Shown piece after piece: positions 49,363-50,161 of a DNA stretch of 64,000 nt. Under the pieces are notes generated by a model. It saw only the letters and a program-made list of their open reading frames with translations. It ran no database searches and was not told the origin of the DNA. The translations under genes were made by a program, and so were the position numbers. The stretch comes from Bdellovibrionota bacterium (GTDB taxonomy: Bacteria; Bdellovibrionota_C; UBA2361; JAFLCA01). Location: NCBI GenBank assembly GCA_030584005.1, contig CP129486.1:435556-499555 (forward strand), read 5' to 3'. Within the stretch, counting starts at the first letter, position 1; each line of letters opens with the position of its first letter.

Positions 49363-49438
49363 GTACCCGTAGCTCAGCTGGATAGAGCGTTGGCCTCCGG
49401 AGCCAAAGGTCGCAGGTTCGAATCCTGCGGGTACGCCA
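49363..49438 (+). tRNA. tRNA-Arg (anticodon CCG)
   Basis: GTACCCG-TA-GCTCAGCTGGATAGAGC-G-TTGGC-CTCCGGA-GCCAA-AGGTC-GCAGGTTCGAATCCTGC-GGGTAC-G-CCA cloverleaf. Confidence 0.85.
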
Positions 49439-50161
49439 ACTGAGCAAGGCGAAGTTGGCGGACAATAGGCAGGATTCGAACCAAGAAACAGGGCGAATCC
49501 GCGAGCGAGTGTCGCTCGCGAGCAATCTGCCGGGTACGCCAACTGAGCAAGGCGAAGTTGGCGGACAATAGGCAGGATTCGAACCAAGAAACAGGGCGAA
49601 TCCGCGAGCGAGTGTCGCTCGCGAGCAATCTGCCGGGTACGCCAACTGAGCAAGGCGAAGTTGGCGGACAGTAGGCAGGATTCGAACCAAGAAACAGGGC
49701 GAATCCGCGAGCGAGTGTCGCTCGCGAGCAATCTGCCGGGTACGCCAACTGAGCAAGGCGAAGTTGGCGGACAATAGGCAGGATTCGAACCAAGAAACAG
49801 GGCGAATCCGCGAGCGAGTGTCGCTCGCGAGCAATCTGCCGGGTACGCCAACTGAGCAAGGCGAAGTTGGCGGACAATAGGCAGGATTCGAACCAAGAAA
49901 CAGGGCGAATCCGCGAGCGAGTGCCGCTCGCGAGCAATCTGCCGGGTACGCCAACTGAGCAAGGCGAAGTTGGGCGGACAATAGGCAGGATTCGAACCAA
50001 GAAACAGGGCGAATCCGCGAGCGAGTGTCGCTCGCGAGCAATCTGCCGGGTACCGCCAACTGAGCAAGGCGAAGTTGGCGGACAATAGGCAGGATTCGAA
50101 CCAAGAAACAGGGCGAATCCGCGAGCGAGTGCCGCTCGCGAGCAATCTGCCGGGTACGCCA
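49425..50161. repeat. ~7 x 103-bp tandem repeat beginning inside the tRNA-Arg 3-prime end
   Basis: unit GGGTACGCCAACTGAGCAAGGCGAAGTTGGCGGACAATAGGCAGGATTCGAACCAAGAAACAGGGCGAATCCGCGAGCGAGTGTCGCTCGCGAGCAATCTGCC; copies differ by a few SNPs/1-nt indels. Confidence 0.85.

Follow-up and report, generated by a model that had tools for sequence, protein, structure and literature searches.

A tRNA-Arg gene followed by seven tandem repeats that rebuild its 3' end in a Bdellovibrionota genome, and their likeness to the RtT repeats of Escherichia coli

Why would a tRNA gene be followed directly by seven repeats that each end as the tRNA itself ends? The question is raised by a tRNA-Arg(CCG) gene in a 64,000-nucleotide stretch of contig CP129486.1 (GenBank assembly GCA_030584005.1, positions 435,556 to 499,555 of the forward strand) from a bacterium of the Bdellovibrionota. 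This whole stretch is referred to here as the window, and positions are counted from its first letter. The closest precedent is provided by the 178-bp repeats of the E. coli tyrT locus and the RtT RNA (annotated as rttR), which an earlier note on this DNA, made from the letters alone, did not mention; nor did it mention that the tRNA gene is one base short. The array shares the anatomy of those repeats. As a package, the reading that it is an RtT-type tRNA-trailer repeat, seeded by a duplication, amplified by recombination, co-transcribed with the tRNA and processed in an rttR-like manner, is given a probability of about 0.5.

The tRNA-Arg(CCG) gene is the sole tRNA in the window, located at 49362-49437 by ARAGORN and at 49363-49435 by Rfam RF00005 (58.8 bits), or at 49363-49438 when the encoded CCA is counted. 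Tandem Repeats Finder returned a single array at 49428-50161 with a period of 103, 7.1 copies, 98% matches and a score of 1429. Cutting the array after each ...GCCA resolved it into seven head-to-tail units at 49439-50161, the first beginning with the base that follows the tRNA CCA. The arrangement reported in the earlier note, a tRNA-Arg(CCG) gene with seven tandem units directly 3' of it, was thus confirmed. The tRNA gene and the units are as follows.

49363..49438, + strand: tRNA-Arg(CCG) with encoded CCA, one C short (CCTGC-GGGTAC) (ARAGORN, Rfam RF00005)
49439..49541, + strand: repeat unit 1, 103 bp, the reference (Tandem Repeats Finder, array splitting)
49542..49644, + strand: repeat unit 2, same as unit 1 (array splitting)
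49645..49747, + strand: repeat unit 3, A to G at unit position 27, in the linker ahead of the inverted T-arm copy
49748..49850, + strand: repeat unit 4, same as unit 1 (array splitting)
49851..49953, + strand: repeat unit 5, T to C at the hairpin loop edge (AGTGT to AGTGC)
49954..50058, + strand: repeat unit 6, 105 bp, two 1-nt homopolymer insertions (GG to GGG, C to CC)
50059..50161, + strand: repeat unit 7, with the T to C shared with unit 5; the array stops exactly at ...GGGTACGCCA

The description of the units as near-identical and 103 bp long held for their likeness (98%) and for the length of six of the seven, the exception being unit 6 at 105 bp. Differences between units were, as had been described, isolated single-nucleotide changes or 1-nt indels, five point differences in all across the array, and the 98% identity is consistent with the recent amplification or homogenisation that had been suggested. 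The sequence CGGGTACGCCA forms the terminus of the tRNA gene and of six units, the remaining unit carrying a 1-nt insertion; these six units close with the 18-nt copy of the tRNA end, AATC-TGCCGGGTACGCCA. Owing to its insertions, unit 6 terminates in GGGTACCGCCA and not in GGGTACGCCA. An exact 15-nt inverted copy of the T-arm, GGCAGGATTCGAACC, was found in all seven units. A 40-nt core of the unit occurs seven times in the window against none in 100 shuffles, and nowhere in the 64 kb outside the array. The units abut with no variable spacer between them and, as the earlier note held, are not CRISPR-like.

Each unit is built from parts that relate to the tRNA in both orientations. The parts are listed here for the first junction and unit 1.

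First part of unit, + strand: 5' segment of 17 nt (ACTGAGCAAGGCGAAGT) (sequence)
49435..49459, + strand: junction hairpin GCCAACT-GAGCAAGGCGA-AGTTGGC (sequence, fold)
49456..49482, + strand: inverted tRNA 3' block of 27 nt, TGGC-GGACAATA-GGCAGGATTCGAACC (inverted alignment)
49472..49500, + strand: hairpin GGATTCG-(15 nt)-CGAATCC, the inner part of the closing helix (fold)
49500..49520, + strand: perfect G+C-rich hairpin CGCGAGCG-AGTGT-CGCTCGCG with an 8-bp stem (sequence, fold)
49524..49541, + strand: direct copy of the tRNA 3' end, AATC-TGCCGGGTACGCCA, from T-loop A58 to CCA

The G+C-rich palindrome and the stem GCCAACT...AGTTGGC were both present as described before. The latter links the GCCA end of the tRNA, or of the preceding unit, to the start of the next unit and is found at all junctions. 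The inverted block opens with the complement of GCCA and closes with 15 nt that are exactly complementary to GGTTCGAATCCTGCC, the canonical T-arm/acceptor junction. The inverted alignment runs 15/15, then through TATTGTCC and then GCCA, and the acceptor-like middle of the block is unlike the adjacent tRNA. After the inverted block follow AAGAAACAGGG, CGAATCC, the G+C hairpin, AGC and finally AATC-TGCCGGGTACGCCA.

When folded, the two tRNA-derived parts of the unit are predicted to meet. In unit 1 AATCTGCC is predicted to pair with GGCAG(G)ATT, leaving GGGTACGCCA as a 10-nt tail. The minimum-energy fold of a unit, in the register starting 10 nt ahead of the junction, was -47.7 kcal/mol (z -5.4; reached by 0 of 200 shuffles) and combines the junction hairpin GCCAACU...AGUUGGC with a three-way junction around the G+C hairpin, where the helix joins GGCAG(G)AUUCG to CGAAUC...CUGCC and the tail is GGGUACGCCA. 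An alternative register, in which the 3' end of the unit pairs with its own 5' part, is almost as good (-44.5 kcal/mol, z -4.4). Of the candidate explanations listed in the earlier note, a satellite or a structured-RNA array fits the near-identical units and a fold below the shuffled controls (z -4.4 to -5.4). For a transcript of tRNA plus unit, the predicted optimum pairs the tRNA T-arm with the inverted copy and the 5' acceptor strand of the tRNA with the perfect CGGGUAC of the unit; it lies 10.5 kcal/mol below the enforced cloverleaf, as a prediction about a precursor and not about what forms in vivo.

The RtT RNA of E. coli has been recognised since 1991, and its origin and function are still unsettled. 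In the K-12 sequence, which was re-examined directly, a 178-bp unit stands in 3.1 copies after tyrV, and each copy terminates in AATCCTTCCCCCACCACCA, which reproduces the final 19 nt of tRNA-Tyr. Unit 1 without its first 7 nt is the annotated rttR (1287066-1287236), whose 3' end lies exactly at the CCA of the repeat. By alignment, the E. coli unit contains an inverted T-arm copy (19/22 nt) and an extended direct homology to the tRNA 3' end that is broken by an insertion. The Rfam model RF00391 (RtT) scores four E. coli copies at 133-138 bits. Its curated closing helix pairs GGGGAAGG(A)U with A(U)CCUUCCC, an inverted T-arm-like segment with a tRNA-derived 3' strand. The helix encloses several hairpins, a G+C hairpin among them, and the 9-nt tail ccaCCACCA is left unpaired. 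Both the complementarity of the closing helix and the minimum-energy fold of the window unit match this layout, the copies being too alike for covariation and the rival register lying at -44.5 kcal/mol. Non-tRNA details shared by the window unit and RtT, picked out by eye and post hoc, are UUCGA(A)CCAAG after the inverted T-arm, GGGCGAA, and CGAG(U/C)AAUC ahead of the strand derived from the tRNA; that the two might be true homologues which the covariance model fails to detect is a lead only. Elsewhere, rttR has been treated as one repeat unit of the tyrT operon and as a stable RNA (PMC3318445). Its role has been described as unresolved, possibly tied to stress or stringent responses (bioRxiv 10.1101/2024.07.17.603846). 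In Actinobacillus pleuropneumoniae, RNAs of the RtT family lie by tRNA-Asn and tRNA-Lys genes and are visible on Northern blots (PMC4986893).

The tRNA gene that the array follows reads CCTGC-GGGTACGCCA, one C fewer than the canonical CCTGCCGGGTACGCCA, at the junction of T-stem and acceptor (position 65/66). The Rfam alignment accordingly has a 1-nt deletion and a broken 7-66 pair, and ARAGORN folds the gene solely with a shifted acceptor stem; with the C restored, a canonical cloverleaf with G73 and CCA is obtained. The missing C is retained in all seven repeats (TGCCGGGTACGCCA) and in the inverted copy (GGCAGG, the complement of CCTGCC), which points to an ancestral tRNA end ...GGTTCGAATCCTGCCGGGTACGCCA. 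The units are themselves one C short at the junction of T-loop and stem (AATC-TGCC). The missing base reflects either an assembly error of one nucleotide or a genuine defect in a tRNA that may be essential.

Transcription of the array would start at a promoter-like site ahead of the tRNA gene:

49324..49352, + strand: promoter-like TTGAAA-17 nt-TATCCT, ending 11 nt upstream of the tRNA (consensus match only)

It is the only + strand match to a sigma-70-like consensus in 48800-50700. From this site to the last base of the array and just past it, the + strand showed no terminator-like site. With no terminator between tRNA and array, co-transcription of the units with tRNA-Arg(CCG) is most likely. 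The promoter-like -10 is also overlapped by one of two exact copies of an 11-mer, GGTTATCCTGC, which occurs only at 49344-49354 and 50204-50214 in the window, that is 9 nt upstream of the tRNA and 43 nt past the array. The flanks of the two copies are otherwise dissimilar, and the 11-mer looks like the T-arm GGTTCGAATCCTGC minus CGA.

The favoured course of events runs as follows. The tRNA end would have been duplicated once, from the T-loop, by site-specific recombination, for which integrases cross over in the T-loop (PMC3146451), or by local rearrangement at the palindromic T-arm. The resulting 103-bp unit would then have been amplified, recently, to seven copies through unequal homologous recombination or slippage between direct repeats of 18 nt and, later, of 103 nt. 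Transcribed together with the tRNA from the promoter-like site at 49324-49352, each unit would pair its inverted T-arm copy (GGCAGGAUU) with its tRNA-derived 3' strand (AAUCUGCC) to close a three-way junction with two hairpins, and the acceptor 3' strand with GCCA would remain as a 10-nt tail of each folded unit. The machinery that matures tRNA 3' ends may cut and trim the precursor at the rebuilt ends and so release up to seven RNAs of about 100 nt with a tRNA-Arg-like tail. Processing at each rebuilt end is proposed by analogy with rttR, and transcription and any function of the repeat RNA are likewise inferred.

Whether similar elements stand behind other tRNA-Arg genes was examined in metagenomes with the pattern GGCAGGATTCGAACCAAG, consisting of the inverted T-arm and the three non-tRNA bases after it. 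The scan returned 39 loci, about half of which are chance matches within open reading frames (ORFs). At eight of the 39 the match lies 27-72 nt downstream of a tRNA-Arg gene, on the same strand, and complements the T-arm of that gene. By anticodon these are distributed as follows.

L010 and L012: TCG
L016 and L033: TCT
L018, L030 and L040: CCT
L031: contig stops before the tRNA

At three of these loci, behind tRNA-Arg(TCG) or tRNA-Arg(TCT), a homologous element is closed by a second terminus of the local tRNA. The second copy follows the local acceptor (CGGGCGTACC vs CAGGCGCAC).

L010, 6421-6760: element behind tRNA-Arg(TCG/TCT), no Rfam match, no integrase nearby
L012, 920-1226: as above
L033, 2253-2520: as above

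The order of parts in all three is tRNA, intrinsic terminator, inverted T-arm, hairpins, direct GAATCCTGCC, a second terminator-like hairpin, about 30 nt, and a second copy of the terminal 9-37 nt of the tRNA. Of the 37 nt of the L010 repeat, 26 are flank outside the tRNA. Behind tRNA-Arg(CCT), L040 (485-900) and L018 (4560-4942) carry a 21-nt perfect inverted copy of the 3' end of that tRNA with a two-hairpin element; the 145-nt unit stands twice in tandem in L040 and once in L018, so that copy number varies among closely related populations. In their computed folds, all of these metagenome elements have a closing helix of inverted tRNA block and downstream direct copy, with two hairpins inside it (z -3.7 to -7.1). 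When the L018 type is compared with L031, the stem of one hairpin is preserved by two compensatory changes and the loop has diverged. No integrase was found beside the metagenome elements in the flanks examined. The architecture recurs behind other tRNA-Arg genes; homology of these elements to the window unit is unproven.

Other loci returned by the scan are of a different kind. At L025 (5882-6030) a 149-nt tRNA-like gene (Rfam tRNA, 34.6 bits) has a normal acceptor stem, D-arm and T-loop with about 75 extra nt ahead of the T-loop; it adjoins an SSB gene and is possibly phage-borne. Orphan 3' fragments of tRNAs, running from position 52 to the end and followed by a good terminator with no 5' half, were seen in three sets of loci (L007/L028/L032, L009/L015/L043 and L024/L037). 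The CTT that precedes the orphan 'CTTGGTTCGAATCCTGCC' sites was forced by the search pattern; these sites may mark tRNA ends displaced to the borders of islands, and the available flanks showed no integrase near them.

The genes around the array bear on how it is to be read. Several are broken: folP is in two pieces (47392-48298), a zinc-type dehydrogenase gene is spread over four frames (48295-49203), pgi is present as fragments (50332-50972), and a LOG paralogue is split (52730-53697) beside one that is whole. In other parts of the window, many of the large ORFs are unbroken. The broken housekeeping genes suggest real gene decay, local or genome-wide, in a host-dependent lineage. The nearest other relatives of the LOG-family protein 3 kb from the array are merely 31-35% identical, which indicates a lineage without close relatives in the databases. 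Among 27 ORFs at 30.3-62.4 kb, a Pfam scan that did not extend to short pseudogene fragments or to the remainder of the genome detected no domain of an integrase or recombinase. As to the assembly, an independent one (Logan, run SRR24881069) agrees with 3798 bp of the window at 100% and without gaps, so the assembly is not error-ridden in general. Logan contigs match only genes at least 4 to 7 kb from the array and stop short of it, and exact-protein look-ups with the nearest ORFs and pseudogene fragments found no independent contig across the array.

A number of observations weigh against the RtT-type reading. Searches for the unit turned up no homologue in GTDB genomes, JGI metagenomes or IMG/VR (by a tRNA-anchored pattern), nor in plasmids or phages (by blastn with two units as query), so that the structure is without covariation support in the lineage of the window. 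The 3' two-thirds of the tRNA with encoded CCA likewise gave no match in GTDB genomes, with a pattern that was perhaps too strict in requiring CCA. The window unit matches neither RF00391, be it at the gathering score, at E<=10 on 1.2 kb or with one unit as query, nor any further Rfam family, including at E<=10 with one unit as query. The pattern that returned the metagenome loci forces T-arm plus AAG, so the shared AAG is not independent evidence and the sample is biased; the interiors of elements from different lineages are unlike and cannot be aligned with the window unit. Two of the five differences between units are insertions predicted to bulge the junction hairpin, and thus give no sign of purifying selection on the structure. 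Pseudogene surroundings and a base-deficient tRNA make neutral expansion in a decaying region plausible. The alternative to which these points lead is a neutral DNA satellite, in which a seed of the form A-B-A was amplified under relaxed selection through slippage or unequal crossing-over, any transcript is degraded, the hairpins are by-products of palindromic sequence inherited from the tRNA, and nothing is selected. It differs from the favoured reading solely in the stability or use of the RNA, and we regard it as possible at well under even odds. It would account for a pseudogene-rich region with a tRNA gene that has lost a base, for unit differences that are not biased away from stems and for the lack of relatives of the unit in the databases searched, and the T-arm, being a near-palindrome (TTCGAA), may readily form inverted copies. 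Yet a tRNA end rebuilt from A58, a pairing inverted T-arm and G+C hairpins are found together in E. coli RtT, a stable RNA, and unrelated metagenomic lineages have the combination behind tRNA-Arg genes too, where some compensatory change is seen.

Iterated site-specific integration was proposed in the earlier note, as an att-carrying element or a reiterated integrase target; here a 103-bp att-carrying mini-element would have been inserted seven times at the tRNA-Arg 3' end by an integrase supplied in trans, the tRNA end being rebuilt at every insertion. The identical fillers and the lack of an integrase domain in neighbouring ORFs did not sustain it, and it now appears distinctly improbable. 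Seven identical fillers are expected from unequal recombination, whereas accretion yields different islands, as in the ssrA islands of Dehalococcoides, where different cargo lies between att copies (PMC3146451). Moreover, ORFs scanned near the array or by the metagenome elements encode no integrase or recombinase domain, the unit is confined to this site in the window, and a circle of 103 bp is very small for synapsis by a tyrosine recombinase. On the other side stand the insert of about 230 bp behind tRNA-Arg in L010, bracketed by the 37-nt repeat with its 26 nt from outside the tRNA, and the presence of a homologous element at two tRNA-Arg isoacceptors, which could mean mobility; an integrase may possibly have made the first duplication of the tRNA end, from the T-loop, and so the seed of the array. 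Less probable still is an assembly artefact that affects the number of copies or the array as a whole. Assemblies are prone to error in repeats, the insertions of unit 6 and the deletion of a base in a CC run of the tRNA are typical long-read errors, and the array is spanned by no independent contig that was found. Four distinct unit variants in a fixed order nevertheless argue against a collapsed, looped or inflated assembly, the gapless agreement with the Logan assembly elsewhere in the window speaks against general error, and a contig of 2.28 Mb implies long reads that would easily span 0.7 kb. The chance that the minus strand encodes a repeat protein is negligible. It rests on ORFs of 208-301 aa (49240-50145, of 301 aa; 49346-50104; 49374-50000) and on the absence of a stop triplet from every minus-strand frame of the unit. 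However, 103 is not divisible by three, so the product would run through all three frames; the ORFs lie antisense across the tRNA gene, 6% of unit shuffles are stop-free, and no product of such a gene has been recorded. On its + strand the unit has no ATG, and it has TGA and TAG in one frame, and hence there is no counterpart of E. coli tpr.

Other readings were tried and set aside. As a degenerate whole tRNA, the 5' 84 nt of the unit are no more tRNA-like than shuffles (125 of 1000 reach the score), and ARAGORN and Rfam recognise just the one tRNA, not a tandem array of tRNAs or pseudogenes. On the minus strand ARAGORN and Rfam found no tRNA in the unit, whose acceptor halves lack complementarity. 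A reading of the sequence on either side of the array as decayed extra units was not supported (p about 0.2). Near-copies of CGGGTACGCC at 40800 and 46153 belong to an unrelated 1-kb duplication. An integron attC, iteron or centromere-like array was set aside by sequence inspection only, no consensus boxes or partner gene being seen.

Further features of the window lie apart from the array. In the rRNA operon (28947-36865, - strand) the 23S gene is spread over 4.8 kb against 2.9 kb and holds a group I intron (30988-31364) and then a LAGLIDADG homing-endonuclease ORF (30307-30948; Pfam E 2e-46); the extra length suggests additional inserts beyond the single intron core. The 16S-23S spacer of 850 nt contains no tRNA. 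The duplication of about 1 kb already mentioned is direct (39855-40900 and 45206-46260, 5.35 kb apart, 96-100% identity). It encodes a 292-aa secreted-looking protein with no Pfam match, intact at 39920-40798 and broken in the second copy, and a hairpin with 21-bp arms lies upstream of both. A pair of DUF6879 and DUF5753 genes (41890-43359) is adjoined in a Logan contig by an HTH_17 (excisionase-like) gene. Proteins identical to the pair occur in two runs (SRR24881069 and SRR10807893), and it is possibly a mobile or defence-related module.

The RtT design is thus present here on tRNA-Arg(CCG), in a metagenome-assembled genome of a deep-branching member of the Bdellovibrionota, with more copies and a smaller unit than in E. 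coli. Its recurrence suggests that the design is a recurrent outcome of tRNA-gene biology and not an enterobacterial oddity, and comparison could address whether there is a shared mutational route (recombination in the T-loop, for instance, or a template switch at the palindrome of the T-arm) and a shared use of RNAs that bear a tRNA 3' end. A wider proposal, which we hold doubtful, is that RtT-like elements are widespread, unrecognised modules of tRNA trailers across bacterial phyla, either selected or miniature mobile elements. If so, each module would be an inverted host T-arm and a rebuilt tRNA 3' end capping a small multi-hairpin RNA. Those under selection might, for instance, regulate the maturation of tRNAs or act as decoys that draw off enzymes or toxins recognising the 3' ends of tRNAs; were they mobile, they would be miniature elements homing to tRNA-Arg 3' ends, and the array in the window the most amplified example. 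For annotation, the array yields spurious ORFs of 200-300 aa on the opposite strand, and the tRNA-Arg(CCG) gene, one base short, needs checking before it is counted as functional.

Among known systems, 3'ETS-leuZ of E. coli is an RNA freed from the 3' external spacer of a tRNA transcript, a short single spacer that binds Hfq-dependent small RNAs. It would share with the array an origin in a tRNA 3' trailer and lacks the copies of the tRNA end, the tandem repetition and the inverted T-arm. Accretion at att sites of tRNA or tmRNA genes, as in CIMEs, resembles the array in its direct repeats of an RNA-gene 3' end from the T-loop, several in a row downstream of the gene (PMC3146451; PMC5704250). 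There, however, the repeats are kilobases apart with varied cargo and an integrase module, whereas in the window they recur every 103 bp around identical 85-bp fillers, which show five point differences and no different cargo. Like the array, the metagenome elements have an inverted T-arm copy, with or without the acceptor strand, whose predicted partner across two hairpins is a direct copy of tRNA-derived sequence further downstream. They also have the terminal 7-37 nt of the tRNA a second time and, at L040, tandem repetition; they differ in that those of L010, L012 and L033 are separated from the tRNA by an intrinsic terminator and have a terminator-like hairpin of their own, and in that at most two copies are present.

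Compared with the E. coli repeats, the array differs in size (103 bp and seven copies, against 178 bp and 3.1 copies plus one between tyrT and tyrV), in host and tRNA (tRNA-Arg(CCG) in the Bdellovibrionota, tRNA-Tyr in the Enterobacterales) and in having no tpr-like ORF. It has in addition a hairpin that sequesters the GCCA end at each junction, and the acceptor-like part of its inverted block mismatches the adjacent tRNA. Both arrays nonetheless lie directly 3' of a tRNA gene on the same strand and consist of head-to-tail units that close with the last 18-19 nt of the tRNA, from the AAT of the T-loop (TTCGAAT) to CCA. In both, the unit contains one or more perfect G+C-rich hairpins, and an inverted T-arm copy pairs with the tRNA-derived strand (in the window, by prediction) to give a multi-hairpin fold with a free tail of 9-10 nt.

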